Shown here piece by piece: positions 44,925 through 64,000 of a DNA stretch of 64,000 nt. A program made the position numbers and the translations under genes. The first letter of the stretch is position 1, and each line of letters opens with the position of its first letter. This DNA comes from a virus: the IMG/VR virus record IMGVR_UViG_3300036832_001488, positions 1-64,000 of that record, one strand, 5' to 3'. The notes beneath the pieces are model-generated. The model did no database searches and had not been told where the DNA came from. It saw only the letters and a list, made by a program, of their open reading frames with translations.

Positions 44925-45121
44925 CCAGCCTTCTTTACCTTGTTATTGCAGCCATTATTCTGGGACTCATTTGGTGGGTCTGCACCCAGCTTCCGTTCAT
45001 GGCCCCATTCGCGCACATCATCCAAGTGTTGTGTGTGGTCGTTTTTGTTATCTACGTCATTTACATTTTAATCGGCTTTATCGGAGGAGGAGGAGGTCAC
45101 CTCGCTGCACCACCTAGATGA
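44918..45121 (+). CDS. small 2-TM membrane protein
   Basis: Two hydrophobic helices linked by LP..APF. Confidence 0.7.
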   Translation: MLASLLYLVIAAIILGLIWWVCTQLPFMAPFAHIIQVLCVVVFVIYVIYILIGFIGGGGGHLAAPPR

Positions 45122-45555
45122 GACGTTTTTGGGATAAGGTTCGCGTTCCAGCTGACATTTCCAAATGTTGGGAGTGGCAGGCAGCAAGCCAGAATGATGG
45201 TTATGGAGTTTTTCAGACCGGAACATTCAGATCGCCTCGCCTAGAGAGAGCGCACAGAGTCGCATTTAGACTAACTTTTGGTGAGCCTCCTTCAGGATTA
45301 TGCGTTCTTCATAGGTGTGATAAGCCTTCCTGTTGCAATCCCAATCATCTGTTCTTGGGAACCAAAGCTGATAATAACGCCGACATGGACAATAAGGGGC
45401 GGCGGAGACACGCCAGCATCCTGACAAGGCAGCAGGTGGAACGGATTCGAAAAGAATACGCTCCCGGTCAGAACGGCTACAAAAAGCTCGCTCGCTGCTA
45501 TGGGTTGACGGAGTTCCATATTCGCAGCCTGATCAAAAGGAGGACCTGGGCGTGA
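45118..45555 (+). CDS. HNH homing endonuclease with C-terminal HTH
   Basis: RFW.KV..CWEW..GYG..AHRV..VLHRCD.P.CCNP.HLFLGT.ADN..DM..KGR. Confidence 0.92.
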   Translation: MRRFWDKVRVPADISKCWEWQAASQNDGYGVFQTGTFRSPRLERAHRVAFRLTFGEPPSGLCVLHRCDKPSCCNPNHLFLGTKADNNADMDNKGRRRHASILTRQQVERIRKEYAPGQNGYKKLARCYGLTEFHIRSLIKRRTWA

Positions 45556-46531: not shown

Positions 46532-47773
46532 ATGGGCGATTGTATCGTCACCCCGGTTCAGGCCGTGGACTTTGCCAACCGAGACAACAACCGTCTCGTT
46601 GGCCAGATCACCACTCTCATTATGCGGCGCGCGCCGTACAATGACACTTTAGATGGCGGCGTTTTCGAGAATGCCATTTCCGATCAACAGCGCAACGTAG
46701 TCGTTGAGCGACCGATTCTGGGCCAGTCCCTGGTTCTGCCAGAATACATCAACGACACCGATTCCTGCGGAACCTTTGGTCAGATCGCGCAAGTAGGCAC
46801 GACGGAGTATGTAACTAGGCTTGGCACGCTCAGAGGAAGAGGACCAAAAGTTTGCGTTAAGCAAATGCGCAGTGCCTTCCAAAATTCCTATGTTGCAGTT
46901 CAAGACTCACTCCAAAAACAGTTACTCTATCTGGCTAACTGCGATGTGCGTTCTCAGTTGTTTTTACATAGTGGCGTTAAGGTTAAGATTAACCAGGGCC
47001 GCACCTTTGAACAAATGGTCAATGGCGACGTTCAAATGATCGATGTTCCTGTGAACGATTCGACGCCACCGGACGCGAACCTCACCTTCAGTTTCCTGCA
47101 GTATTTGTTAGTTTTCGCGCATGAAACCTTACTCTGCGAGAGCTTCGAATCCGAGAAAGGCACGGTTGCTAAGTTCATTGGTAGTCAGACTCAGCTGAAT
47201 GTCTTCCGCGATGAGCTGAATGTTCACCAAGACTTGCAGTACCTGACCACAGGCCGCTACGAGTTAGGTAACGAATCTATAACAGGTTATACATGGGAGG
47301 GTCCATACAGAGGCATTGCGTTTGGCATAGATCAGCAGCCTCTGCGTTTTAACCAGTTTACCGTCCTCAACGGTCAGCTGATCCCGCAGTTTATCGAGCC
47401 AGAAATTGCGGTTCCGGTGACCACTGGCTTTGGCGCGCGGACTAACCCGGCTTGGCTCTATGCCCAGTACGAGGTTGGCTTCCTCATGTTTGCCAACTCG
47501 TTCCGCCGGTTAGTTCCTGAGCAATACTTAGGCGTTGGCGACTGGAAATTTCCAGCCCAGTTCGCCCAAGGAGAATTGGAATTCACGGTCATTAGAGATA
47601 ATGACTGCAACACTTACGGCGACTACGGCTATCACATCTACCAAATGATCAGGGCCTATCGGCCGGAGAGGCCTCATGCCGTGATTCCGATCATGTACAA
47701 GAGGTGCAACCCGACCTTTAACTTCCTAACCTGCCCGAGCTATCCTGGCTCTGCCAGCGGTTACGCGATGTAA
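46532..47773 (+). CDS. major capsid protein
   Basis: 413 aa, long 5' leader, terminator downstream, position between scaffold and adaptor genes. Confidence 0.75.
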   Translation: MGDCIVTPVQAVDFANRDNNRLVGQITTLIMRRAPYNDTLDGGVFENAISDQQRNVVVERPILGQSLVLPEYINDTDSCGTFGQIAQVGTTEYVTRLGTLRGRGPKVCVKQMRSAFQNSYVAVQDSLQKQLLYLANCDVRSQLFLHSGVKVKINQGRTFEQMVNGDVQMIDVPVNDSTPPDANLTFSFLQYLLVFAHETLLCESFESEKGTVAKFIGSQTQLNVFRDELNVHQDLQYLTTGRYELGNESITGYTWEGPYRGIAFGIDQQPLRFNQFTVLNGQLIPQFIEPEIAVPVTTGFGARTNPAWLYAQYEVGFLMFANSFRRLVPEQYLGVGDWKFPAQFAQGELEFTVIRDNDCNTYGDYGYHIYQMIRAYRPERPHAVIPIMYKRCNPTFNFLTCPSYPGSASGYAM

Positions 47774-47779
47774 TCAAAT

Positions 47780-47810
47780 CAGGGCGGCGAATAGCCGCCC
47801 TGTTAGTTTT
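47780..47810 (+). terminator. rho-independent terminator after capsid gene
   Basis: CAGGGCGGC-gaata-GCCGCCCTG then TTAGTTTT. Confidence 0.75.
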
Positions 47811-48264: not shown

Positions 48265-50628
48265 ATGATTATCGCCAGTCAAGTTTTCAATCAGGTGGGG
48301 CGGGTGCTAGGCACCTGCGATAGCGACTATGTCTACGATGTTTTGACCCGCGCCGTCGAGCTTTTAGCCAATAAACCCACCAAAACTAACATTCTGTGGG
48401 ACCCGATGCTGATTTACGTCGATATCCCCATAGTCGATAATTACTACGTCTGTCTGCCGCCACACGTCCAAAAGCCGGTCAAGGTCAACATCAATAAGCA
48501 GCCATCCTTCACTCGAAACCAGTTTTTTGAGTTCAGCATTAATGGCCCTGGTAGTCAGGACCCGGAGGCCAATTACAGTTGGCAAGACCGAGGCTGGAAC
48601 GCTCTGCAGAAGCCCTGGCCTGCCAGCGGCGACTTTCTTTTCATCAATTCGACTGACGCGAACGACAACAATACCCAGGTCCTAGTTAATATCATTAACG
48701 AAGACCGTTCCACCCAGTGGTTGCCAGTCTTTGTCGGCCAAGCCACCACCGTCAAAGCCTATGGGATTCAGGAAGTTTCTAAGCCGGTCACTCAAGGCAC
48801 TCTCCAGCTCTTTAGCGGGCCCTACATCATTCAATCGAAGTTAATAGCTAACTGGGGCCCCCCGGTACTCTATCCCCAGTTTGAATGGATTAAACTTTCC
48901 CAGGCCGGAGTCAGCTGCAAAATCTTAGCGCGCCGCCGGACCTATGTAATCAGCGCACCTACCGATGTCATCCCTCTCTCCAATCGCCAAGCCGTTATCA
49001 CTGCCTGTATCGCCATCAAGGCGTATGACACCCTCAACTGGGATGATGGCGGCACCGCAGAACAGAATGCGTTTCGATTTCTGGATGAGGACCAAGCAGC
49101 CCGCAACCTCTTCCAGAGAGTTTCCAATATTGCCGAAACCACTCCGACACTTAATCTCACGATCAACACCCGCGATGCCATCATTGTGGCCGACATCTAC
49201 GACTTCGCCTGCGATGTCTTCGGCCCCATAGGCCAGCAGAAAGTTTTCGACCGGATCACTGAAGCGATTGAGTTACTCTCTAACCTCGGTCCCGCCTGGG
49301 ACCCTTTGATTGGCTACGTCGATATCCAGACTTGGGATTCCTTCTACGTGACCTTGCCTTATTACGTTGATCAAGTTTTAGCGATCAATGTGAATAAGTC
49401 GACCGGCACCTTCCGAAACCAGTGGTTTGAATTCCATATGAACGGGTTAGGCCAGGACAACGATTTCGCCGACGCCGTGGGAAGCAATCGGCCCTGCGGT
49501 GGCTGGGAAGAAGTAGGGGAGTTTCCCTGCGCCTTTCCTTTATCTAGCCCTGGCTATCTCGTGGCGCAGCCGGTGAACGCGGGCGACAACGGCACCGCTA
49601 TACGGGTCTTCGGGATCGACCAGAACGATCTGCCTATCATGTCAGCTAGCGATGGTCGCCCAGGAGCCAGGATAAGTTGTGAGCAAACCGGCTACGATAT
49701 CACTGATCAGACCTATCCCTACAAGCGCGTCGACCGGGTCGTCATCGAGGGAAGTGCCCAAAGTTTCATTATGTTGTATGCAACCGACGGGACCCAGCTC
49801 TTACAGAATTTAGGGACGTTCTGGCCGGGAGTCTGTGAGCCTAGGTTCCGCGTTATCAGGATTGGCCAAAAGGCCGTGACGATCCGGCTGCGCTATAAGA
49901 AACGCTGGCTCAAAATTACCAGCTTGACTGATCCAATTCACATGCGCAGCCGCTCGGCCATGTTTAACGCCCTGCGCTCGATCCAGACGGCCACCACCGA
50001 CCCAATGAGCGCCCAGCAATTGATGATGGCCGCAAAACAGCAGCTCAACCAAGAATGGCGGGCCTCGCACCCACAGGAAGGCCTGGACCTGCAATTCGAT
50101 CCAAGCATATGGGGCGGCAGCATGATAAGCATGCCAGCTTTAGCTTTGCCTCTTGCGGCGGTTCAAGGCTTGTTCTCGCCAAGTCGCCCATTTCACATTT
50201 CCTGGCTCGTAACCGCGATTATTATCTATGCGCTCTATCGTATGGGCTGGGCTCGGCGGCTCACCAATATATTTGTAAAAAGCTTCAAAAGATTTCTGCC
50301 ATTCTGGACAAACGGTAATTCCCCTCGATTGATAGTTGCGAATCCATTTTGGTCTCGTTGGATTAAGGGCCCGTTTTTTCATATTCTGCCACGCGGAATA
50401 GACCTTGGTCTTGGATTTGCCATGCGTCTTAGAGATTTTGCTAGTCAACTCTCGGTGAAAGCATCCACAACTGCGGGTCCTACCTTCACAGAGCATGGAT
50501 CTGTAGCAAACGACCTTATTTCCGCAGTCGCAGAGACAGTTCCAGCGGACCCTTCCGAGCGCACCCCCATTTTTAGCTCGCGATTTCACGATCAAGCGTC
50601 CGAAACGTTCACCGGTCAAATCACGTAG
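48265..50628 (+). CDS. putative head-tail adaptor with two tandem homologous domains; last ~165 codons antisense to HNH gene
   Basis: Halves align (RAVELLANK/EAIELLSNL; WDPMLIYVDI/WDPLIGYVDI; RNQFFEF..NG.G/RNQWFEF..NG.G). Confidence 0.65.
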   Translation: MIIASQVFNQVGRVLGTCDSDYVYDVLTRAVELLANKPTKTNILWDPMLIYVDIPIVDNYYVCLPPHVQKPVKVNINKQPSFTRNQFFEFSINGPGSQDPEANYSWQDRGWNALQKPWPASGDFLFINSTDANDNNTQVLVNIINEDRSTQWLPVFVGQATTVKAYGIQEVSKPVTQGTLQLFSGPYIIQSKLIANWGPPVLYPQFEWIKLSQAGVSCKILARRRTYVISAPTDVIPLSNRQAVITACIAIKAYDTLNWDDGGTAEQNAFRFLDEDQAARNLFQRVSNIAETTPTLNLTINTRDAIIVADIYDFACDVFGPIGQQKVFDRITEAIELLSNLGPAWDPLIGYVDIQTWDSFYVTLPYYVDQVLAINVNKSTGTFRNQWFEFHMNGLGQDNDFADAVGSNRPCGGWEEVGEFPCAFPLSSPGYLVAQPVNAGDNGTAIRVFGIDQNDLPIMSASDGRPGARISCEQTGYDITDQTYPYKRVDRVVIEGSAQSFIMLYATDGTQLLQNLGTFWPGVCEPRFRVIRIGQKAVTIRLRYKKRWLKITSLTDPIHMRSRSAMFNALRSIQTATTDPMSAQQLMMAAKQQLNQEWRASHPQEGLDLQFDPSIWGGSMISMPALALPLAAVQGLFSPSRPFHISWLVTAIIIYALYRMGWARRLTNIFVKSFKRFLPFWTNGNSPRLIVANPFWSRWIKGPFFHILPRGIDLGLGFAMRLRDFASQLSVKASTTAGPTFTEHGSVANDLISAVAETVPADPSERTPIFSSRFHDQASETFTGQIT

Positions 50629-50637
50629 GGAGGGCAT
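50140..50637 (-). CDS. HNH endonuclease with N-terminal repeat domain
   Basis: DLTGERFGRL.V..W.C.CDCG..SCGC..HG.S....Y..W..MK.R..RGI.VC.EW..SF..F..IER.DNN.GYEP.N.KWAT..EQ..N. Confidence 0.92.
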   Translation of the reverse strand: MPSLRDLTGERFGRLIVKSRAKNGGALGRVRWNCLCDCGNKVVCYRSMLCEGRTRSCGCFHRELTSKISKTHGKSKTKVYSAWQNMKKRALNPTRPKWIRNYQSRGITVCPEWQKSFEAFYKYIGEPPSPAHTIERIDNNRGYEPGNVKWATWREQALNRRKRQS

Positions 50638-52670: not shown

Positions 52671-53963
52671 ATGCCTACTTTCCAAGGTTATATCGCTTAT
52701 GCGCCGTTTCCCGAAGGGTTTGAGGGAGACATGGATGAGACGTTCCAGCAGAGCGGCCAGCTCGCGATTATCTACATCAGCGGGAACTTCCTGACCGGCT
52801 TTTATTACCCGATTGGGACAATACCTGCCCCCACCTTGCCTACCAGTGACCAGGGCCCTATTGCCCTAAATGGCCAATGGTATTTCTGGGACCCGGTGAG
52901 CGGCCAGTACTTGCCGCAGTCTAGCTCGATCAAGCCTGCGCGCAATTATGCCAAGAACGCCATCTATCAGGTTCAGCAGTTGGGAAGCGCCTTTAATTCG
53001 CTGCCCGCCGGAGTCAATAGAACCTATGACATGGTCTTGAGCCGGGTCACCCAGTCCAATGTTTTATCGGTCGCCCTGGATGTAGGCCCAGCGGCCAGTG
53101 TCGACACAGATTATATCGGCAGCGCCATCAAATACACGGTCGGCACCACCCTGGTCCCGACTCTGGGTGCAACCGATCTTTTTGCGCACGAGCACCTGAT
53201 TGAGGGCAGTGATATTGCCGGAATTCAAGGCGAGATATTAAGCCTCTCCTTCAGTGTCAAGGTTAATCAGCCGGGGAATTATTCGGCTTACCTGACCTCT
53301 AATGGCCGGGATGCGAGCTACGTTTCCCCTTTCACGATTGCGACCGCCAATACTTATGCCCGGATCAAGATTAATAATATCCCGGCGTTACCGACCGGCA
53401 CGGGCACTTGGAACTTCGGGGAAGGCCAGACCGGGCTTTATCTAGGCGTCGTGATGGGAGTCGGTGCCCAGTATCAGACGGCGACTCCCAAGCAATGGGT
53501 GGCAGGGTTCTTTGCGGGAACGGCGGCTAACTCCAACATGCTGACCGTTACTACCAACCAAATTACGGTGACGGCGATCAAGCTCGAGTCCAGCCCCAGT
53601 GCCAGCTATTTCACCGCCAATTCTTTAGAGACCGATCTTCACGATGCAATCCGGTACTATTTTACGAGCTACGACTACCAATCGCTTACTAGCGGGGTCC
53701 AGATACCTACGGTCAGTCAAGGGACCAACCTTCAGTATTGGCGTTTCATTTTCCCGCGCCGGATGTGCAAGGTGCCAACGGTTATTCCTTACGGGGCCAT
53801 CTCCAACACGGCTGCTTTTGTCACCAACATAAGCACCTCGACCGATGTTGCCCAGGCCACGTTAGTAGCTCATCAGAAAGGTATCGTCGCTAACACTACA
53901 GCCACCAGTGCCAAGGGAGATGTATTTGGAGCAAATTTCACCGCCGATGCAAGACTCGCCTAA
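52671..53963 (+). CDS. tail fibre / tail structural protein
   Basis: LPTSDQGP..W.FWD; H.IEG..I..LSLSF.VK...G; C-terminal MCKVPTV..ADARL. Confidence 0.7.
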   Translation: MPTFQGYIAYAPFPEGFEGDMDETFQQSGQLAIIYISGNFLTGFYYPIGTIPAPTLPTSDQGPIALNGQWYFWDPVSGQYLPQSSSIKPARNYAKNAIYQVQQLGSAFNSLPAGVNRTYDMVLSRVTQSNVLSVALDVGPAASVDTDYIGSAIKYTVGTTLVPTLGATDLFAHEHLIEGSDIAGIQGEILSLSFSVKVNQPGNYSAYLTSNGRDASYVSPFTIATANTYARIKINNIPALPTGTGTWNFGEGQTGLYLGVVMGVGAQYQTATPKQWVAGFFAGTAANSNMLTVTTNQITVTAIKLESSPSASYFTANSLETDLHDAIRYYFTSYDYQSLTSGVQIPTVSQGTNLQYWRFIFPRRMCKVPTVIPYGAISNTAAFVTNISTSTDVAQATLVAHQKGIVANTTATSAKGDVFGANFTADARLA

Positions 53964-53964
53964 A

Positions 53965-54357
53965 ATGCCTGATAAAGAGGGGATGTCCCTGATCCGCATC
54001 AACAATGAAAAAGAGATGCGTAACTGGGGAGTCGACCTTCTTTCCCGCGACCTCTGGGGCGGTGATTGTCCGCGCCAGTACCCGGTTTACATCGTCTTCT
54101 ATCACGGCCAGCCGGTAGGCTATTTCCTAACTGTTCAGCAGTTTGTGGTTTACCCGGCGCTGCACCCGGAGCGGATAAGTCCACGGGAGTTTCTGAAGAT
54201 TACCCGCAGTCTGGTGAGCGAATTTAAGCGCATGGTGGGCAATCCGATCTTTATGATGTGCAAAAAAGATCAGGAGTTCGGAGCTAACAATTTTAGGCGG
54301 ATTCGGCTCAAGCGAGCCGACGAAACGGCTTATATCTACGACGAAGAGGCCCCATGA
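53965..54357 (+). CDS. possible GNAT-fold virion assembly protein
   Basis: G.PVGY..F.RI.L pattern; precedes ejection-type genes as T7 gp13-like genes do. Confidence 0.45.
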   Translation: MPDKEGMSLIRINNEKEMRNWGVDLLSRDLWGGDCPRQYPVYIVFYHGQPVGYFLTVQQFVVYPALHPERISPREFLKITRSLVSEFKRMVGNPIFMMCKKDQEFGANNFRRIRLKRADETAYIYDEEAP

Positions 54358-55814
54358 GATTGTTTGATTTCATAGTATGGCTATTTGGTCCCCGCTACTT
54401 TGGTGGCGGCGGGGGCGGTGGTTCTAGTCAATTTAAGGCTCAAGGCACTCCTCCTGGCTTTGATTACCAAGCCGCCCAGGGCCTTAACCAGATGGCTATT
54501 GGCGGCGATATCCAAAGTTATGCTTTAAGTGACGCCGACTTTGCTAACCGTTATCCGGCGCTGCAGAATGCGTACAACCAGTGGCAAGCTAATCTAGGTA
54601 ACCAAGTTAACGCTGCCGGAACGGCTACCGCAGGCCTCCAGAATGTAATGGGTGGATTAGGTAACCAGATCGCGGGCCGTAACGCCACTCCGACAACGAC
54701 TGACATCAATGCGATCCGTAATGCGGCTTCGACTGCCGCTGGCGCAGTAAAGCCAATTATGGGCCTGGGAGCCCAGCAGGCCGGACTTGCTCAACCCATT
54801 GCGAACGCAGGCGCACAGATCGGCCAGATGGGCGGGCAGCTCGCCGGGATGGCTGCGACTCCTTACGCTCTGGGCCAGCAGCTGTTGCAGGAGCCGATTG
54901 ATCCTAACACCCAGCAGCAGATGATGCGGGCCGGGTTAGGAACCACCTTGGGCGCTGGGTTAGGTGCCGCCTCACTTGGCCAGGGCATGGCCGGACAAAG
55001 CGCAGCCGCGCGCCAGCTAGGCTTAAACACCGTGCAGTATGGACAAGCCATGCGGGGCGAGGCCATGGGCGACATCTCCCAAGCCGCATCGATTTTGGGC
55101 CAGGGTGGGCAGCTCTCCGGCCTTGGCGCGCAGACTCTGGGGCTAGGCTCGACGACTCTAGGCCAAGGGGCCCAGACCTTAGGGCTAGGAGCCCAGACCG
55201 CAGGTCAGGCTGGCCAACTTTCGGGTGCTGCCCAACAAGCCCAGGAACAATACGGGATGGATACAGCCCAGATGGCGAACATCTACGGCAATTTGCAGAA
55301 CCAGCAGGCCACCAATCTGATGCTCAATATGCAGACTGCCGGGAACATGTTCCAGAAGCGGCCCTTCGGGTTAGGCGGAACTAACATGGCCCAGACCGAG
55401 CTGGGGCAGGCTGGGGCTTATAATTCGTTCCAGCAGGCCAATTACGCCACCATGAATGGCATCGCCTTTAACCAAGCTCAGCTCAATGCTCAGAACCAGC
55501 AGATGGCGGCTCAGCAGCAATCGGCTACGACTGGAGCCTTGGTTTCAGCCGGTTCGACTGCAGCCATGGTTGGAGCCACTGCCGCAGGCGCGTGTTGGAT
55601 AGCGCGCGCCGCCTTTGGGGAGAATTCGCCTAAATGGCGAATATTCCGGCACTGGCTGATGAATAAAGCCCCCAGGATCGTCCGCAGAACCTACCTAGTG
55701 TATGGACCCTCCTTTGCCCCGAAAGTGCGTGCAAACAGGCTGCTAGGGGCCTTAGTGAGGGGATTTATGACCCTCGCCATTAACCGGACCACCTATGTAT
55801 GTCTACCCGCTTAG
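54354..55814 (+). CDS. Gly/Gln/Ala-rich ejection (pilot)-type protein with C-terminal CFI-box-like domain
   Basis: N-terminal FGGGGGGG; QTLGLG heptads; C-terminal CWIARAAFG..W..FR.WL..AP..Y..YG. Confidence 0.7.
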   Translation: MRLFDFIVWLFGPRYFGGGGGGGSSQFKAQGTPPGFDYQAAQGLNQMAIGGDIQSYALSDADFANRYPALQNAYNQWQANLGNQVNAAGTATAGLQNVMGGLGNQIAGRNATPTTTDINAIRNAASTAAGAVKPIMGLGAQQAGLAQPIANAGAQIGQMGGQLAGMAATPYALGQQLLQEPIDPNTQQQMMRAGLGTTLGAGLGAASLGQGMAGQSAAARQLGLNTVQYGQAMRGEAMGDISQAASILGQGGQLSGLGAQTLGLGSTTLGQGAQTLGLGAQTAGQAGQLSGAAQQAQEQYGMDTAQMANIYGNLQNQQATNLMLNMQTAGNMFQKRPFGLGGTNMAQTELGQAGAYNSFQQANYATMNGIAFNQAQLNAQNQQMAAQQQSATTGALVSAGSTAAMVGATAAGACWIARAAFGENSPKWRIFRHWLMNKAPRIVRRTYLVYGPSFAPKVRANRLLGALVRGFMTLAINRTTYVCLPA

Positions 55815-57019
55815 AGTTGCGTGAAGCTTGTGCGGAGGCCCTTAACCGGCTCTCCAGAGAAGAGCTGTTAGAGAAGTTTGCGATCTCGCGGGTGGCCGAC
55901 GTGACCGGCCTGGATACTATCGGAGTGCCGGTCTTCACCACTACCAGGGCGCTTTCCCAGACCCTGTCTATCCATGCCGGTAAAGGCCTGGAGCGCAAGT
56001 TGGCACGCGCCGGAGCTATTGCCGAAGCCATTGAGTTTGAGGTGGCTGAACATCCTTTTGGGGACTTTAAACTGGCCAATAGTCTACAGTTGCCAGAGGA
56101 AGATCATCTGCCGGTAGAGGATTGTTTCCCGATCCGTGCTTCGATTGTTAACGAGATGACACCGATTGCCTGGGAAGAGGCAACTAACGTCCAGAATGGG
56201 GCCGTTAAGTTTGTTCCTAGTGATCTGATCTGGATAGCGCCCCGGTTAAAAGAGCAACCCTTCATGTATTTTCAGGTCGGCTCTAATGGGCTGGCCAGCG
56301 GTGCGACCCTGGAAGATGCCATCCTTTCTGGCCTCTATGAGATCGTGGAACGCGATGGCTGGACCATCCACACCTACATGATGGAGAACTTAGGCATTTT
56401 AGCTAACCGGATGCCGTTAGTTAGTTTGTGTCCCGAGATCGAGGAAATTGTCCGGCGCTTAGATGAGCAGAAGCTCAAACTGCATCTCTTTGACTGCACC
56501 ACCGATTATCAGGTGCCGGTCTTTGCTGCGACCATTCTGGATTTAAGCGGCAACTGTGCCGGAACCTTTGCCGGTTACGGGTGCCATCTGAATGCGGAGA
56601 GCGCCGCTCTGCGGGCGATCACTGAGGCCATCCAAGGCCGCGCCTGCTATATCTCCGGCGCGCGCGATGACATGCTTCGCCGCCAGTTTCTTCTGATGAA
56701 GCGGATGGATCAGGCGAGGCTCGACCAGATGTTTAACGAGTTGGAGCGAGGCTCTTCCATCAGCGAGTATCGCAAGGTCGAGTTCCCTGACATCAAAAGC
56801 GAATTACGTTATTTACTGAAGTTACTTAAATCCAGAGGCGTCAGCGAAGTCTTTGTCAAAGACCTGGGACAACATGCCGATTGCCTGCATGTAGTCCGGG
56901 TCTTTTCGCCCCAATGCGAGCCGCACCGGTTCGACTACTGGACTCCAGGCTTACGTTGTCTTTCCTATGCGCAGCGCAAGCTGGAAGAACTTAAGGAGGA
57001 TAAAGAATGTCCGACCTGA
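55799..57019 (+). CDS. ycaO: YcaO-family protein, TfuA-associated (thioamide-forming) type
   Basis: ISRVADVTGLD.IGVPV, HAGKG..A..EAIE, SNGLASG....AI..GLYEIVERDG, G.GCH....A.LRAITEA.Q.R...ISGARDD; no C-terminal PxP. Confidence 0.93.
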   Translation: MSTRLELREACAEALNRLSREELLEKFAISRVADVTGLDTIGVPVFTTTRALSQTLSIHAGKGLERKLARAGAIAEAIEFEVAEHPFGDFKLANSLQLPEEDHLPVEDCFPIRASIVNEMTPIAWEEATNVQNGAVKFVPSDLIWIAPRLKEQPFMYFQVGSNGLASGATLEDAILSGLYEIVERDGWTIHTYMMENLGILANRMPLVSLCPEIEEIVRRLDEQKLKLHLFDCTTDYQVPVFAATILDLSGNCAGTFAGYGCHLNAESAALRAITEAIQGRACYISGARDDMLRRQFLLMKRMDQARLDQMFNELERGSSISEYRKVEFPDIKSELRYLLKLLKSRGVSEVFVKDLGQHADCLHVVRVFSPQCEPHRFDYWTPGLRCLSYAQRKLEELKEDKECPT

Positions 57020-58350
57020 TCCTTGTTTACCTGGGCCCGAGTCTGGAGCTGGAAAAGGCTAAAAAGATTATACCGGAGGCGATCTATCGGCCACCGGCTA
57101 GGCAAGGCGATATTGCGAGCGACGTCATTAATCTTAATCCCAACATCATTATCCTGATCGATGGGGAGTTTCGCCAGAACTTGAGCCCCTGGCACAAGGA
57201 GATCGTGTATGCGCTCCAGCATCCAGGCGTTAGATCTATTTACGGAGCCGCCTCTATTGGCGCTCTGCGTGCGGTTGAGCTGGAGTACTTGGGGATGATC
57301 GGGATCGGCAAGATCTATGAATGGTTCAGAGACGGTGTGACCGAAGACGACTCAGAGGTGGCACTTAACTATGTGCGGCAAATACGGATTAAAGACAATG
57401 ACCCGGCCTATACGGCGCTGAGTGTGCCCCTGGTTAACATTCGGGCCGGAGTCGAGCATTATCGGAAGGAATTTGCGGATAATCCTGCCGTAACCGAGTC
57501 GGTAGAGCAGTTCTTTAAAGTGATGCAGGCCACTCACTACAGCGAGCGCACGGTCGAGCTTTGTGAAGAGATGTGGGCCGGTGCCTTGGGTGTTAGTTTT
57601 CCTTGCATCCCGCAAAAAGAGTTAGACGCGGTTGAGGCCCTCTCCAACTTCTGGAACTATCTGCCGCAGGTAAAGGTCAAGCCCAGGCCCGACCATCTCT
57701 CGCACGCTTTCCAGTCTCTCTATGACCGGGACCGGCGTATCAAGGTTAACGGCCAGGCTGTCGCTCAGCAGCATATTGATAGCTACGTCCTACTTCATAA
57801 CCCTGAGTACGAACGGATTTGCTGGGACAGTGCCAACCAAGAGCTGGCCTTGATTTTGTGTAACGCCCTTTTTGTGATGGTCGATTTAAGCGAGGTCGAG
57901 ATGGAGTCGGCCCGATTCCAGAGCCGGTGCGAGATTAAATCCATTGAAGATTTTAACCATATGCTGGCTAACAACGGCTGGAGCCGAGGCGAATACGACC
58001 GGCTGATGGTGCAGAACGCGCGCATCCGCAAGCTGCAGCACACTTTGAGTTCTGCCAAGCATTCCCGGCGTAACACCTGCGCCATCCTCGACTATCTGCG
58101 CACCCACCAGGGCTTCGACTACTGGGCGGTTAAGGCGGCACAGAAAGAAGCCCAGATTGAACGGATGGGGATCGACGAGTGGCCGCTGGATTTAGAAACT
58201 TCGGCCTGGAAACTCTTAGAGGACCAGTTTGAGGCCGAAGGCCTGGAGCTGAAATCCTCCCAGGAAGCTTACCTGTTAGAAACCGGATTTAGTAATAAAC
58301 GCGAGCTGGCAGTGGCCTTAAATCGGCTCCTGGCCCTTAAGGAGGCATAA
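57007..58350 (+). CDS. tfuA: TfuA-like protein with ~220 aa C-terminal extension
   Basis: YLGPSL..PPA.QGD..LIDG.F....PWHKEI..AL..GAAS.GALRA.EL..GM.G.G.IY..DD.EVA..LS.PLVNIR..Y.ERT..QK.LDA. Confidence 0.92.
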   Translation: MSDLILVYLGPSLELEKAKKIIPEAIYRPPARQGDIASDVINLNPNIIILIDGEFRQNLSPWHKEIVYALQHPGVRSIYGAASIGALRAVELEYLGMIGIGKIYEWFRDGVTEDDSEVALNYVRQIRIKDNDPAYTALSVPLVNIRAGVEHYRKEFADNPAVTESVEQFFKVMQATHYSERTVELCEEMWAGALGVSFPCIPQKELDAVEALSNFWNYLPQVKVKPRPDHLSHAFQSLYDRDRRIKVNGQAVAQQHIDSYVLLHNPEYERICWDSANQELALILCNALFVMVDLSEVEMESARFQSRCEIKSIEDFNHMLANNGWSRGEYDRLMVQNARIRKLQHTLSSAKHSRRNTCAILDYLRTHQGFDYWAVKAAQKEAQIERMGIDEWPLDLETSAWKLLEDQFEAEGLELKSSQEAYLLETGFSNKRELAVALNRLLALKEA

Positions 58351-58352
58351 TT

Positions 58353-60380
58353 ATGGCGGCGACGACGAATGCCTTTAATAACACGAATCAGAATCAATTC
58401 GGCGGCATGAATTTTACTGACTGGAGCCAAGTAGCTGACATGTTCGGCACTTCGGTCGTTCAAGCCCTCCAGCAGAATAATGTGGCCCTTAATCAGGTAG
58501 GCTCAGTCATCGGCAAGCTGGGCATAGCTCAGCAAACTAGTTCGGGCACCTCAGGCCAGTTCGGCGCGTCTAATCCGCAAAATATTTCTTCCGGTTTCAC
58601 CTTAGCCGATGCGATTAACCAGCAGCAAGGCGGCAGCGGCAGCGCTCAGCAAAGCAATTCGGGCACCATCAATATGACCGGCTGGCAGAACCCGGACTAC
58701 GCAACTAACCTGTTAGGCGCGCAAGCTCTGGAGGCCGTGGGGCTTAATCCCAGTAAGACCATGACGGTTAATCCACAGCCCTCGGCGGTTACTTCCAGTC
58801 AAGATTTTGCTAAAAGCGGCGTATCTAGTGTTGCCGGGCCGCAAACCTTCGACATCAGCCAAGCGCCCATGCCGAATCCCAATCCGAGTATCGGGAGCGT
58901 CTTTGGTGCGGTCAAGCCGCTTAACCCAACGGTCAGTGGCCCGATGACACAACAGCCCGCCAACACCAATCCTAATTGGGCGAATTGGAGTACGGCGCAG
59001 CAGAACGCCTACATGAGGCAGCAGGGCATGCATCCCGCTGAGAGAGCCACCTATTCGCAGGAGCAGAATCAAATCCAACAGAATATAAAACAGGGCAATT
59101 ACCTTAACCCGACTGTCCAGGCGACCGGAGCCCAGGCGACCCAGCCTCAGGCGTTTGCGACTCCTCCACCAATTCCGACTATCCAGACACCTCAGGTTTC
59201 TTCTCAGGTTCCGGCTAGCACTGGGACTCTTCCGCAGCCTCCGGCAGCGCCAGGAAATGCTATTGCTGGATCGCCTTTTGGGCCGATCTCTAGTCTTTCA
59301 CCGAGTGCAACACCTCCAGGGCCATCCAGTATGCCCCCTGGATACGGGACGGCGATTAAACATATGGCGGGAGGCGGCTCGGTAGGCGGCACCGACACGA
59401 TCCCAGCGATGCTGACTCCAGGCGAATACGTGATTAACCGGGATGCGGCCCAACAGATCGGGCGCGGACGTTTAGACCAGCTTAATGCCGAAGGTGGTCG
59501 CCTTCATATGCAGGATGGCGGCTCAATTCCTGGCGCTAGTCCTTCCTATGGCTATTCACCAGGGGCAGATGCCCAGAGCTTTGCTTTCCAGCAGCTCTCA
59601 CCACAAGAACAAGTTGTCCTTCAAGGAGGCGGGGCGGCGGGACAACGGGTTCAGCAGAAATTTAATCAACTGGTTAACAACTATCAGGGCAGTTCTGGAA
59701 CTCCTACTCCGATGTCGGCACAGATGGGCATGAACAACCCCGCTGCTACTACTGCCCAGGTTCATCCCACGGCACCGGCTGCGCCTGCAGGCCAGCCGCA
59801 GCAGCAGAAACCAGCCGGTTATTCCGGCTCGCTCGACCAATGGTTAGCTCAATATGGACATACGCCGCAGGGCCAAGCCTATATTGCGCAGAATGGGAAT
59901 GTTAATGAGGTGCAGCGCTATCTGCAAAATCTAACCACTCCTCAGACGACCCCGGCGACCTCCCCGGCGACCTCCATGCCTGCTTACACCGACACTGCCC
60001 CGCGAGCTAGCCTCGTCTCGGCTCCGGCAGGCTACGGTGCAGCTCCGCGAGCTGAACTAGTTGGCTTACCGGCAGGCCAAGGCGAAGCCTATGACCCGAA
60101 GACCTACGGCATCAATACTGGAGCCAGTGGGGCGGCAGGAATGGCCGGTAACATCGCTGGCGCTATTGGGCAAATCGCCCAAGCTTTTACGAAAGGTGCC
60201 GGGGCTAGCCAGCCATACAAGTGGATTCAGAGCGCGATTCCCAATCCTGCCGATCTTAAAAGCCAGACTCCTGATATCGTCTTGCAGGGCCATCAAGTTG
60301 GTAAACCTAATACACCGGGAGGCTATGTCCTTATGGCCCAGCCAAATGATCAGCCCAGGGAAGACACCTATCTGAGTTAA
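58353..60380 (+). CDS. putative internal virion / ejection protein
   Basis: Q/P/G-rich; MAGGGSV.GTDTIPAMLTPGEYVINR.A.QQIG module known from phage virion proteins. Confidence 0.7.
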   Translation: MAATTNAFNNTNQNQFGGMNFTDWSQVADMFGTSVVQALQQNNVALNQVGSVIGKLGIAQQTSSGTSGQFGASNPQNISSGFTLADAINQQQGGSGSAQQSNSGTINMTGWQNPDYATNLLGAQALEAVGLNPSKTMTVNPQPSAVTSSQDFAKSGVSSVAGPQTFDISQAPMPNPNPSIGSVFGAVKPLNPTVSGPMTQQPANTNPNWANWSTAQQNAYMRQQGMHPAERATYSQEQNQIQQNIKQGNYLNPTVQATGAQATQPQAFATPPPIPTIQTPQVSSQVPASTGTLPQPPAAPGNAIAGSPFGPISSLSPSATPPGPSSMPPGYGTAIKHMAGGGSVGGTDTIPAMLTPGEYVINRDAAQQIGRGRLDQLNAEGGRLHMQDGGSIPGASPSYGYSPGADAQSFAFQQLSPQEQVVLQGGGAAGQRVQQKFNQLVNNYQGSSGTPTPMSAQMGMNNPAATTAQVHPTAPAAPAGQPQQQKPAGYSGSLDQWLAQYGHTPQGQAYIAQNGNVNEVQRYLQNLTTPQTTPATSPATSMPAYTDTAPRASLVSAPAGYGAAPRAELVGLPAGQGEAYDPKTYGINTGASGAAGMAGNIAGAIGQIAQAFTKGAGASQPYKWIQSAIPNPADLKSQTPDIVLQGHQVGKPNTPGGYVLMAQPNDQPREDTYLS

Positions 60381-60393
60381 CATCCTTACGCAT

Positions 60394-63120
60394 ATGCCAG
60401 GAGAAGAAACTAAACACGAACCGGCTGGAATACAGACCCAAGGTCTTTATAACCCTTCTGTTACCCAGCTTCATTTTACTCCGGTGCAGTATGCCAACTA
60501 TGGACCGATGCTCCAGGCAATCGAGTCAGCTGGGTCCAACATTCTGCATTACATGAATCCATCGACTATCGCCAAGATGAAGATGGATGTGGCCAGCTCT
60601 GCTGCTGGTAGACAGTTCTTGGCTCAGGCCACCAAGAACCAATATCTTATGGCAAGCCAGGGCTATGTGCAGGGAGGACAGTTTGGGCTGCAGCCCGCTT
60701 ATGAGAACCCACTCTTGCGTCAAAAGCTGGCTGGCCCATTTATTAAACAAAACGCCAATGACGGCAAGACTGAGGTTGATCCGAATTCCGTCAACCCTCC
60801 CCAGCAGAGCGGAAATACTAATAACACTTCCAACACAGCCAATAATCCTAACCCTCCGGCCTCTAACGTGCAGCCATGGTGGGGGGGGCAGGTTAGGACG
60901 GGAGACGTCAATACTGATGCCTTGACCAATCCTGACTATTCTCAAATCGTGCCTCGCCCAGGCTATGCCACCGGTTACCAATCTGGCGGCGAAGTGGAAG
61001 CTCAAGATCAGTCAACGGTGCAGCAGCAGCCTACGAATTATTTCTCTTCCGCTAATGCCATTCCGCCCCCGCCGATTCCAGCTGTTCAGCAATCGCCTCA
61101 AGATCAGAGATTGTCTTCCACTCTCCCTGCCCATATCCCGTATTCGCCCGAAGCCCAGGCTGGGGCTTTTGCTCCGCAGCAGGGTGTTGGCGAGCTGAGT
61201 CCAGAGGTGTTAGCCCGTCAGCAGGCTCAGCGCCAGCTTGAACAACAGAATTTAATCAGTTGGCAGAATCAGAATGTGGGGAGCCCCTTGAGCGCCGAGG
61301 AAGCGAGGAATTGGGCGCGCACTAGTCTCGATACCGATATTAACCGCGCGGTTTACCTGCCGCAGGGTGGCCCGCCTGGACAGGGTGGCCAGCGCGAACC
61401 GGCTTATGCTTTCTATGGGAAAAAAGGTGGCACTAACATCGTGCCCATTAGCCAGATGATAAAAGCTGGGGCTGGCCCCTTGATCGCAGCCCAAAACGCC
61501 AGCCAAACCCTAAATCACAACGAGCAAAACCAGCCACAGCAAAACCAACCGCAACCCGGCCAGCCTGCCGGAGCAACGCCTCCCTGGACCTCTTCAGGAC
61601 AAAACCCTCCCACAAGTCCAATGCAGCCGGTGCCTGGGACTAATCCTAATGGCGTTCAACCCATACCGAATGCACAGCCTCCTGGGAATGGTCCGCTCAC
61701 GGCTGGGATGCCCCCAGCGGCTCCCGGCGGGACGACGCCCGGTGCTCAAGTGCCCCAACTACCGGGCGGCGGAACTAACTGGGGCGCAATACCGGGGCAA
61801 TTACCGAATGACGTGTTTAACCAGCGGGTGGCAGCGGCAACTAACACCGCTCAGACCGGGGGCCCATCACTTGGCCAGCTCTACGCCAGCACTAACAATC
61901 CAGCTGCCGCTGTAAGCCAGGACTTTGTCAAGGCTAACACCGGAGCAACCGCAGAAGATATCGCCCAGGCTAAAGCCAATCTTCAATCTAGACTCTCTAG
62001 CGGAGATTCTACAGTAAATCGGGACGCCGATGGCAACCCGTCCCTAGGCAGGCTCGGTGATTTTCAGTATTACCAATCCGATAATGGTAAGGGATTAGCC
62101 TATGCTGATCGCGATGGTGAGGGCGGTTTTTACCGGGAGCGGCTCTGGGAAGGCGACACTCAGTGGAAACCTATCCTGCCCAATGCCAATCAAGCCCGCC
62201 AGGATTTATTAAACACACAGTACGGCAAGACGCTTGGCATTCAGAAAATCAGTCAGATGAACGCGCAGCAGCTCTCTGATGCGCTCTACAGTGATTACTA
62301 CATACACAGCATCTTGCCAAGCATGCCCAACTTGGAGCCTGGGCAAGCCACCAAGATAGAAAATTCCTATTATAAGATCTTGAGCGGCAACCGGTTGATC
62401 CATGCTTTAGAGGGCCAAGATCCAGGGGATTTCAACTATTCCGCGCAGGGCGTCAACTTAGCCAATCGCGCTGGGCAAGGTCTTTTTTCAAAAAACCCGC
62501 AGGGGCCGATCCAGCAGGTCGGAAATGCTCTGTCCTCACTACTGGGACTTGCAGCTGGCCCCAAGAAGGAAAACGACCGGCTAACCTTTGTCCAACAACA
62601 GGAAGCTAGCTTAATCAACCGGATGCATAATAAACCGGAAGGTTCCGAGATAAATCCTTTGGACTGGGTAGCTGGCGACAACGAGCTAGGTGGGATCGGC
62701 ACCGGCAGTGCTAATGCTCTGGATGCTTTAAAGAGGAAAGTTAGCGGGTGGCAGACAGAGTGGAATAACGACATGTTCGCAGCCAGGGCTAATAAGTCGC
62801 GCATGCCCGGTGCCTGGAACGATCTCATGAACGATTTCAATGCTGGGAAACCTTGGTATGATCCGCAGGATACCTATGGTCCCGGCAGGAAACAGCCCAA
62901 CGAGATCGGTCCATTAGCAGCGGCGGATGCTGCCCATACAACGCTGGCTCCGCGTGTAACCAATAGTCCTGCGCCTCCAGCTCCTGGCGCAGGCAGACCT
63001 ACTCAGGGCGCGGGTTCCAGCCGCGACAATCCGATAGTTGTGCATAGCGATGATCAATTTAACAGTCTGCCACAAGGCACGCACTGGAGGGATGAACAAG
63101 GCAACGAGGGACAAAAGTGA
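60394..63120 (+). CDS. putative internal virion / ejection protein
   Basis: Q/P/N-rich, YQSGGEV; C-terminal SDDQFNSLPQGTHWRD..G motif. Confidence 0.65.
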   Translation: MPGEETKHEPAGIQTQGLYNPSVTQLHFTPVQYANYGPMLQAIESAGSNILHYMNPSTIAKMKMDVASSAAGRQFLAQATKNQYLMASQGYVQGGQFGLQPAYENPLLRQKLAGPFIKQNANDGKTEVDPNSVNPPQQSGNTNNTSNTANNPNPPASNVQPWWGGQVRTGDVNTDALTNPDYSQIVPRPGYATGYQSGGEVEAQDQSTVQQQPTNYFSSANAIPPPPIPAVQQSPQDQRLSSTLPAHIPYSPEAQAGAFAPQQGVGELSPEVLARQQAQRQLEQQNLISWQNQNVGSPLSAEEARNWARTSLDTDINRAVYLPQGGPPGQGGQREPAYAFYGKKGGTNIVPISQMIKAGAGPLIAAQNASQTLNHNEQNQPQQNQPQPGQPAGATPPWTSSGQNPPTSPMQPVPGTNPNGVQPIPNAQPPGNGPLTAGMPPAAPGGTTPGAQVPQLPGGGTNWGAIPGQLPNDVFNQRVAAATNTAQTGGPSLGQLYASTNNPAAAVSQDFVKANTGATAEDIAQAKANLQSRLSSGDSTVNRDADGNPSLGRLGDFQYYQSDNGKGLAYADRDGEGGFYRERLWEGDTQWKPILPNANQARQDLLNTQYGKTLGIQKISQMNAQQLSDALYSDYYIHSILPSMPNLEPGQATKIENSYYKILSGNRLIHALEGQDPGDFNYSAQGVNLANRAGQGLFSKNPQGPIQQVGNALSSLLGLAAGPKKENDRLTFVQQQEASLINRMHNKPEGSEINPLDWVAGDNELGGIGTGSANALDALKRKVSGWQTEWNNDMFAARANKSRMPGAWNDLMNDFNAGKPWYDPQDTYGPGRKQPNEIGPLAAADAAHTTLAPRVTNSPAPPAPGAGRPTQGAGSSRDNPIVVHSDDQFNSLPQGTHWRDEQGNEGQK

Positions 63121-64000
63121 ATGGCCGCTCTCACTCAAGACCAGCTCGATCAGCTGAAGGCTGCTGCTGAAAAAGAAAAGGCGCGTGCCCCCGGCGCATC
63201 CACTCCTGGCTATGCTCTGCCGACTGCGCCCGCTGCCCCTGACGGGGCGCAGCCTCAGCCGCCGCCAGACCAAGGTCAGCAGATAGGGCGAGCTAATGCT
63301 GCAGCCGCTGGCATTACGACCCCGGCTGGTCCGCGTTCGCTTGAGAGCGCATCCACTCCTGGCTATGGCATAACCACACTCCCAGCGCCAGCTGCGCCTG
63401 ATGGCAACGCCCCTCCTAGCCAGACGCCTCAAGCTCAAACCCCGGCGCAGACACCTCAGGACAATGAGTTTAGTAATCCCGGCACTAACATCCCGGCTGG
63501 TTACCGGGCACCGGCAGTCAAGGCTGAGCCGACCGACGATGAGTTAAATCAGAAAAGCGCTGACGATCTGTTCCCTTATTTCTCTACCTCAAATGACGTT
63601 AACCCAGACCGGGCTGCAGCCTTCTGGCAAAATAAGAAGAATCAGGAACTCAGTAATCAGAGCTTCGATAACAACAAAGCGGTGCTGTGGAACGATCTAT
63701 CCAACGTATGGAATAAAATCGTTCAGACAAAGGGCGTCGTTCCCAACACAATTAACTATTTTAAGAGCATCGTTAACTCTCTTGGCGGAAGTGGCGATGA
63801 TGTCTTACAAGCTTTCGGCAACCAAAACGCGATTGATTATCGCCAGGATCTAGATGGCAAACTGGCGAACAACACTATCAGCCAGCAAACTCACGACCAG
63901 AGTATGGCGTTAGTAGATCAGGCTCAAAAGCTGCAAGACAAACTGGCCTTCGAGAAGCTAAGCCCCCAGGAACAGCAAGATATTAAAGTTCAGATTGCTG
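63121..64000 (+). CDS. putative large internal virion protein, N-terminal part (runs off window)
   Basis: Not in track; MAALTQDQLDQLK..; internal repeat ASTPGY....APAAPDG twice. Confidence 0.65.
   Translation, partial: MAALTQDQLDQLKAAAEKEKARAPGASTPGYALPTAPAAPDGAQPQPPPDQGQQIGRANAAAAGITTPAGPRSLESASTPGYGITTLPAPAAPDGNAPPSQTPQAQTPAQTPQDNEFSNPGTNIPAGYRAPAVKAEPTDDELNQKSADDLFPYFSTSNDVNPDRAAAFWQNKKNQELSNQSFDNNKAVLWNDLSNVWNKIVQTKGVVPNTINYFKSIVNSLGGSGDDVLQAFGNQNAIDYRQDLDGKLANNTISQQTHDQSMALVDQAQKLQDKLAFEKLSPQEQQDIKVQIA

Follow-up and report, generated by a model that had tools for sequence, protein, structure and literature searches.

We report a pair of genes encoding members of the YcaO and TfuA families in an uncultured tailed phage, together with a candidate substrate encoded immediately upstream. 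The window is the whole stretch of DNA analyzed, 64,000 nucleotides corresponding to positions 1 to 64,000 of IMG/VR virus record IMGVR_UViG_3300036832_001488, a linear contig of 76,914 bp with a CheckV completeness of 77%; features lie on its plus strand unless stated otherwise. The best reading of the sequence comparisons is that the phage encodes an ATP-dependent, TfuA/ThiS-dependent thioamidation of an Ala-rich segment in the protein encoded just upstream, here called UP (for upstream protein), and we judge this reading to have about an even chance of being correct. Thioamide chemistry as such is highly probable. The wider proposal, that many uncultured tailed phages thioamidate an Ala-rich segment of a protein from their own virion or ejection module, probably at several positions, by means of captured YcaO-TfuA(-ThiS) genes, is put forward tentatively, at a little below even. 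The enzymes and the chemistry are known ones; the viral setting and the type of substrate proposed are new.

The YcaO open reading frame (ORF), at 55799-57019, encodes 406 residues, and the TfuA ORF, at 57007-58350, encodes 447. Pfam model PF02624 identifies the first product as a YcaO, an ATP-dependent enzyme that activates backbone amides, with an E-value of 4.9e-59 and 200.7 bits against a cut-off of 25.7, covering profile positions 1-324 of 325. Model PF07812 identifies TfuA with an E-value of 5e-29 and 100.9 bits against a cut-off of 30. These results bear out an initial annotation, made from the sequence alone, that had described a full-length YcaO overlapping a TfuA gene. The closest solved structure for YcaO is M. 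jannaschii MJ1094 (PDB 6PE3; E 3.2e-32), with which the YcaO sequence blocks quoted in that annotation align. TfuA matches M. acetivorans TfuA (6XP8) by sequence with an E-value of 6e-24, and its AlphaFold2 model (predicted local distance difference test, or pLDDT, of 93) superimposes on 6XP8 with Z 24.8 and a root-mean-square deviation of 2.5 Å over 202 residues (Foldseek E 8.4e-12). The best NCBIfam models describe McrA-glycine thioamidation for both proteins: TIGR03266 for YcaO, at 184.6 bits under a cut-off of 365, and NF033432 for TfuA, at 141.5 bits under a cut-off of 235.2. The E. coli type of YcaO, NF040716, scores 49 bits where its cut-off is 700. General family scans matched no methyl-coenzyme M reductase (MCR) family member among the ORFs scanned, although no search was aimed at McrA.

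Across 39 viral YcaOs sharing 26-100% identity, residues K62, E76, E79, E84, N163, G164, E181, E184, R185, D186, R272, E276, Q279, R281, G287, R289, D290 and D291 are invariant. By the published structures, we take the acidic and basic residues among them to be ATP/Mg-binding contacts. The catalytic residues are not degenerate, as expected for the intact thioamidation-type pair that had been suggested, and with the frames intact and the motif residues kept, both YcaO and TfuA look functional. Apparent stops in some YcaO homologs proved to be natural stop codons within tblastn ranges, and a pseudogene reading of those homologs was rejected. The comparisons thus establish the identity and integrity of the two enzymes. 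They also bear on the possibility that YcaO forms azolines or amidines, acts in proteolysis or performs other chemistry instead, or that the pair is a non-functional passenger. The YcaO superfamily is chemically diverse (PMC13063428), and both proteins fall under the thioglycine equivalog cut-offs, but pairing with TfuA is strict, ThiS joins the pair in relatives, cyclodehydratase partner domains are absent, and the best structural relatives are thioamide-forming enzymes. Invariance of the catalytic motifs across deep divergence argues for selection. We regard such an alternative as very improbable.

TfuA consists of a core domain, residues 1 to about 222 (57007-57672), which carries the PF07812 match, and a helical C-terminal extension, residues from about 225 to 447 (57679-58350), whose domain model has a pLDDT of 87.8 and which has no match in Pfam. 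TfuAs of this length are common: of the best 150 representatives, most have 420-480 residues and align end to end, and long TfuA occurs in 40 of 80 cellular loci. The best structural matches of the extension are all to chaperone modules of SurA, PEB4, trigger factor and PrsA, with Z from 6.9 down to 5.0 and Foldseek E-values of at least 0.48. As a lead from the model, the extension may bind unfolded or hydrophobic polypeptide; the matches lie within the noise for helical folds, and with Z no higher than 6.9 a SurA-like or trigger-factor-like identity was not accepted. In three proteins (P0246, P0256 and P0257) a long TfuA is fused to a C-terminal O-methyltransferase with a dimerization domain, for a total of about 800-850 residues.

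The comparison set comprised about 150 phage loci with and without YcaO-TfuA. A search of a large protein database with YcaO gave 409 matches, the best 120 of them essentially all at least 60% identical, and many of those 120 lie on contigs of 74-79 kb, indicating a sizeable phage clade of that genome size. In IMG/VR we found 76 distinct YcaO loci, with TfuA directly after YcaO in nearly all those of sufficient length. By these matches, the pair is conserved in hundreds of uncultured phage contigs. Identity to the nearest cellular YcaOs, those of Azospirillum, Dongiaceae, Actinomycetota and others, is only 29-36%. A maximum-likelihood tree places the viral YcaOs in two purely viral clades, one of 13 rows that includes the window (support 99) and one of 50 rows (support 100); a single viral clade also survives the approximately unbiased (AU) test (p 0.165). 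Purely viral clades and cellular copies at most 36% identical, together with the synteny of relatives, exclude a recent host insertion or an assembly chimera as the origin of the pair, and on this phylogeny YcaO and TfuA are old in phages. Cultured phages gave no match for YcaO or for the putative capsid protein of the window. The initial annotation knew of no characterized phage example, and our literature search likewise found no publication describing YcaO-TfuA in phages; PMC8120280, which deals with such clusters, makes no mention of phage.

Directly upstream of YcaO is UP (54354-55814, 486 residues), a homolog of gp25 of Puniceispirillum phage HMO-2011. Its N-terminus is poly-Gly and its body is rich in Gly, Ala and Gln; a hydrophobic Ala/Gly segment comes next, and the C-terminus is a conserved module of about 70 residues. 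This last region, here the CW-module (residues 414 to about 475; 55593-55778), was defined from an alignment of 38 sequences by the motif CW[VI]AR..[FY]G...W..[FY]R, and residues C414, R418, G422, R432 and Y447 are invariant in all 38. When all plus-strand ORFs were clustered, a member of the UP family stood immediately 5' of YcaO in 72 loci, representing both viral clades, which establishes the linkage of UP to the enzymes. A hidden Markov model (HMM) of the CW-module matched 70 viral loci and 0 of 80 cellular YcaO loci. Neither UP against Pfam, PHROG and PDB sequences nor 24 of its homologs against Pfam produced a hit. The CW-module resembles NCBIfam CFI_box_CTERM (NF041770) at profile positions 1-66 of 69, with 16.6 and 20.6 bits where the curated cut-off is 40, and membership was rejected; a literature search on "CFI-box" returned no paper. 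A CW-module protein also occurs in a provirus, as classed by IMG/VR (IMGVR_UViG_3300036817_000497). Its metagenome series also yielded close relatives of the window, and this provirus might help locate a host.

IMG/VR holds at least 561 confirmed CW-module genes, mostly without YcaO. Among the best 80 further CW-module loci YcaO occurs in 4, and in none of 52 with at least 2.5 kb of downstream sequence. On these counts UP is widespread among phages, with YcaO-TfuA as an accessory insert beside it. The family thus allows a comparison of UP proteins with and without the enzymes, and what tracks the enzymes is the composition of the hydrophobic segment. We measured the 16 residues that precede the CW motif, which in the window are residues 398-413 (55545-55592) and form the proposed thioamidation core. 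Where YcaO-TfuA is present, the segment is 50% Ala, 17% Gly and 1% polar (30 distinct sequences, in which ten sub-lineages range from 38 to 56% Ala); without the enzymes it is 19% Ala, 28% Gly and 11% polar (67 sequences). The ranges scarcely overlap, the minimum Ala fraction being 0.31 with the enzymes and the maximum 0.375 without. No YcaO was found anywhere in the 15 records of the "without" class, 8 of which are at least 94% complete.

Shared descent and base composition were considered as sources of this contrast. A tree of the CW-module, built with the segment excluded, requires at least 2 changes of the with/without label, and in its mixed clade the Ala fraction is 0.56-0.69 in YcaO-linked members versus 0.06-0.31 in the others. 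In one complete genome of 40.6 kb the enzymes have moved to a distance of about 16 kb from UP, whose CW-module there is of the YcaO-less type; even so, the Ala fraction of its segment is 0.56. Since UP is a core gene of such phages, finding it together with the enzymes in that genome carries little weight; only the Ala-richness of the segment is informative there. GC content as the cause was rejected: over the 300 residues preceding the segment the Ala fraction is 0.17 with and 0.16 without the enzymes, regression gives YcaO an effect of +0.32 on segment Ala with a negligible GC slope, and in GC-matched sets the fractions are still 0.49 versus 0.19. These comparisons establish that Ala-richness of the segment follows the enzymes. 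The initial annotation had proposed the Gly-rich neighbors of the pair as substrate; comparison narrows that proposal to the upstream gene and, within it, to the Ala-rich hydrophobic segment as the candidate site.

A similar feature appears in cells. Five of 74 cellular loci, spread over three unrelated phyla, encode in the slot upstream of YcaO a Nif11-type precursor with an Ala-rich, uncharged C-terminus; the background for such Ala-rich Nif11-type tails is 8 in 13,552 ORFs. The UP segment resembles these tails, and Nif11-related precursors have been predicted for YcaO-TfuA clusters of this kind (PMC8120280). The resemblance invites the alternative that the locus makes a small thioamidated peptide, secreted or released, of the class made on ribosomes and then post-translationally modified (RiPP), from a short ORF or from a cleaved C-terminal part of UP, with a role in competition or lysis. 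That RiPP-type clusters with Nif11-type leaders are its closest relatives in cells (PMC8120280), that some long TfuAs are fused to O-methyltransferases, and that truncated forms of UP end as RiPP cores do would all fit. No short conserved ORF adjoins the pair in the window, however, in agreement with the initial annotation, which had noted the lack of an adjacent short precursor. The recurring ORFs of 61 residues in relatives, and others of 52 residues, are Pro/Ser/Thr-rich off-frame products and were rejected as precursors. A protease and an exporter are absent, UP of the window has no Gly-Gly leader cleavage motif before the segment, and no Nif11 or other RiPP-type leader was matched in its 486 residues. 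We consider production of such a peptide improbable.

Sulfur supply links some of these phages to known thioamidation systems. TfuA hydrolyses thiocarboxylated ThiS and so feeds its YcaO (PMC13063428; PMC8153245). At least 12 loci of a phage group with genomes of 41 kb carry, after YcaO and before TfuA, an 88-residue ORF of the ThiS family that ends in Gly-Gly (PF02597, 34.3 bits against a cut-off of 22.5; for example L027:11110-11376), which establishes a link of the viral pair to ThiS. The absence of adjacent ThiS and ThiF genes asserted by the initial annotation therefore holds for the phage of the window and fails for its distant viral relatives. Some loci (L043 and L078) have an extra 72-residue ORF in the gap between YcaO and TfuA. 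Among cellular loci, 22 of 80 have a ThiS-like gene beside the pair. A chromosomal cluster of Azospirillum sp. B21 (L081:6498-12046) encodes, in order, a 418-residue protein, YcaO, a long TfuA, ThiS and a ThiF-rhodanese fusion; the 418-residue protein has a weak Nif11-type N-terminus and long Ala/Ser-rich repeats, and clusters of this type are conserved in 22 Azospirillum-type loci.

The enzymes might instead target a host protein, for takeover or for evasion of defence, much as E. coli YcaO acts on ribosomal protein uL16. YcaOs can modify full-size cellular proteins, as MCR and uL16 demonstrate (PMC13063428), and the phage of the window lacks a sulfur carrier of its own. In some phages the pair sits among non-structural genes of opposite strand. 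On the other hand, about 70 of 76 loci have the pair coupled to UP inside the late structural operon. YcaOs of the uL16 type also work without TfuA (PMC13063428), resemblance to the E. coli type is slight (NF040716, as given above), and a host target leaves the Ala-rich correlation unexplained. We think a host target doubtful, with a probability that is low.

Under the preferred reading, thioamidation of the UP segment, the events would run as follows. Late in infection the structural operon would be expressed. YcaO, using ATP, would activate one or several backbone amides in UP residues of about 398-413, just before the CW-module, and TfuA would free sulfide from a thiocarboxylated ThiS-type carrier, supplied by the host here and encoded by the phage in some relatives. 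Sulfur would then replace the backbone oxygen in the segment. The modified UP would be a gp25-like component of the distal virion or of the internal-protein module, and its Ala-rich segment is probably a membrane-active or assembly-relevant helix. Possible benefits would be protease resistance or evasion of host defence, both put forward in the initial annotation, or changed hydrogen bonding of a membrane-active helix. In the thioamitides, the YcaO/TfuA pair installs four thioamides, and protease resistance of thioamitide intermediates has been suggested (PMC8153245).

Several points weigh against this reading. With an Ala fraction of 0.44, the segment in the window sits near the bottom of the Ala-rich range, and the values for two others in its clade are only 0.31-0.375. 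The sequences compared are related, leaving only two or three truly independent contrasts of presence and absence, and the CW-module tree is built on only 61 columns. In 76 of the 80 further UP-family loci the enzymes are missing; because UP mostly occurs without them, any modification must be dispensable for its basic function. No residue of the CW-module distinguishes loci with YcaO from those without. Neither enzyme reaches the equivalog cut-offs of the McrA type. Neither ThiS nor ThiF was found in the whole 76.9-kb record, 77% complete, so that a carrier from the host would be needed. Finally, it is from gene position and synteny alone that we infer a virion location for UP, and the label "ejection-protein operon" has the same source.

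The data do not support the CW-module itself as the site that is recognized or targeted. No residue of the module discriminates, as noted, and in three lineages YcaO-TfuA is retained although UP stops right at the Ala/Gly tail and the CW-module is absent.

The genes around the pair are closely packed. The stop codon of UP (TAG, 55812-55814) falls beyond the YcaO start codon (ATG at 55799), an overlap of 16 nt. The YcaO stop (57017-57019) overlaps the TfuA frame by 13 nt, with the TfuA ATG at 57007 preceded by AAGGAGG. After the TfuA stop at 58350, 2 nt separate it from the next ATG, at 58353, also preceded by AAGGAGG. The junctions are thus as the initial annotation gave them, and on this layout YcaO and TfuA are translationally coupled within a long late operon of a single strand. 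A site scan found no terminator-like site on the plus strand between 49530 and 64000, and in the same scan promoter-like sites were rarer than in shuffled sequence. The gene at 46532-47773 encodes a probable major capsid protein; this is no more than a lead from Atlas, in which every one of the nearest named clusters is a phage capsid family. Its assignment as a probable capsid gene marks the operon as structural. Directly 3' of it, at 47780-47802, is a perfect 9-bp GC-rich hairpin with a T-rich tract, the strongest plus-strand terminator-like site within 46-64 kb. The late operon begins after this gene and hairpin and ends with genes for proteins of 675, 908 and 2810 residues.

The product of 58353-60380 (675 residues) is an internal-virion-protein candidate by position and is conserved in the 75-kb clade; it has a short tape-measure-like PHROG match at E 3.6e-4. 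The product of 60394-63120 (908 residues), a candidate on the same positional grounds, is syntenic in close relatives and has no family match in Pfam or PHROGs. The gene for the 2810-residue giant closes the operon, starting at 63121 and continuing past the end of the window at 64000 (L005:1122-9554 in full). Pfam finds DUF7178 near the C-terminus of the giant (E 1.4e-8), DUF2934 weakly, and nothing else. It holds the same position as giant proteins of 1250-2270 residues in the 41-kb group, and ORF clustering places giant ORFs downstream of YcaO-TfuA in 27 other loci.

Any of these proteins, or the capsid protein, could be the thioamidated one, with the adjacency of UP being an inherited insertion site. 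The pair shares one late operon with their genes, the giants recur after it in those 27 loci, and the capsid protein is unusually conserved. Loss of the pair from the operon in L055 and L072 means, besides, that adjacency to UP is not obligatory. Yet the 75-kb and 41-kb groups have no downstream gene family in common, whereas UP is common to both, and no feature that tracks the enzymes was seen in these other proteins, unlike the UP segment, though they were examined less thoroughly. A virion protein other than UP is, in our view, an unlikely substrate, if one with somewhat more in its favor than a host protein. As for the putative capsid protein, it is 93-100% identical among relatives in which YcaO, TfuA and tail-module proteins are only 45-70% identical, a sign of either unusually strong conservation or recent exchange of that single gene.

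Searches of PHROGs and Pfam left almost all neighboring genes without a name. The gene at 52671-53963 belongs to the structural module and encodes a homolog of HMO-2011 gp28, annotated as a tail fiber protein (family HMM against the gp28 region, E 5.3e-15, with a weak match to phrog_6427). The product of 48265-50628 has 787 residues here, and most relatives align to residues 1-624 only; the extra 3' part of the gene is overlapped by an antisense ORF of 165 residues on the minus strand (50140-50637). An HNH endonuclease gene (45118-45555; phrog_1872, E 7.9e-28) lies within the block of head and structural genes.

HMO-2011 is the one cultured phage in which a CW-module was found. The UP C-terminus matches its gp25 (706 residues, annotated as hypothetical) with an E-value of 1e-8. 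The region from gp28 to gp22 parallels the window, with the product of 52671-53963 as counterpart of gp28 and UP as counterpart of gp25, and matching neighbor genes are annotated as hypothetical. There gp25 has a distal place in the structural operon: coat, tail and fiber genes precede it, and gp24, gp23 and the 1128-residue gp22 follow. The HMO-2011 genome has no YcaO-TfuA. In the window, its relatives and HMO-2011 alike, the gene stands at the distal end of the structural operon, before very large proteins. This position agrees with the placement of the pair in a virion ejection-protein operon by the initial annotation, but direct homology of UP to internal proteins of T7 or P22 was not found by Pfam or PDB sequence search. 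Atlas gave a single lead, to P22_gp7 (score 0.84, 13% of cluster members), which Pfam did not confirm. In podoviruses, the internal-virion-protein (IVP) operon includes the non-structural, acetyltransferase-like IVP-A, an enzyme-like gene amid distal tail and internal genes (PMC4819975). IVP-A belongs to an enzyme family other than YcaO-TfuA; it gives a precedent for an enzyme gene in this module.

The archaeal pair that makes the McrA thioglycine (TIGR03266/NF033432; 6PE3/6PEU, 6XP8) consists of the same two enzymes and provides the closest solved structures. It shares with the phage system the predicted ATP-dependent and ThiS/TfuA-dependent exchange of O for S and a full-size protein target. 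In contrast, the phage proteins score far below the equivalog cut-offs, phage TfuA has an extra helical domain of about 220 residues, the phage genes are viral and lie in a structural operon, and an Ala-rich segment is proposed as the site where the archaeal target has one Gly. Thioamitides such as thioviridamide and thiostreptamide S4 have an Ala-rich core. Their YcaO and TfuA (TsaH/TsaI) iteratively install thioamides in a hydrophobic stretch (PMC8153245), but the products are secreted and small, and the many other tailoring enzymes of these pathways are all missing from the phage locus. Bacterial clusters with YcaO, long TfuA, ThiS and ThiF, known from prediction (PMC8120280), include the nearest cellular relatives, in Azospirillum (L081) and Sphingomonas (L121), at 29-36% identity. 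They resemble the phage locus in long TfuA, linked ThiS, and a gene 5' of YcaO with an Ala-rich uncharged tail; unlike it, they are chromosomal, with short leader precursors or Ala-rich repeat proteins, and with the CW-module in 0 of 80. E. coli YcaO, acting on uL16 (PMC13063428), likewise thioamidates an intact protein, but it comes from another YcaO subfamily, works without a TfuA partner, and serves a housekeeping target of the host.

Backbone thioamides in proteins are known from two cases only, MCR and uL16 (PMC13063428). If our reading is true, the phage system would be the first viral protein thioamidation and a third natural class of thioamidated proteins after those two, with RiPP-type machinery re-used on a structural protein. 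A virus that installs thioamides in a protein of its own particle module would broaden the biology known for this modification, give a compact system of three genes (substrate, YcaO and TfuA), and tie uncharacterized bacterial clusters with Nif11-type or Ala-rich precursors to a substrate rule. UP proteins occur very commonly in podovirus-like phages of the environment, the abundant marine HMO-2011 type among them, and the natural contrast between phages with and without the modification could help to reveal the role of the UP hydrophobic segment in infection.

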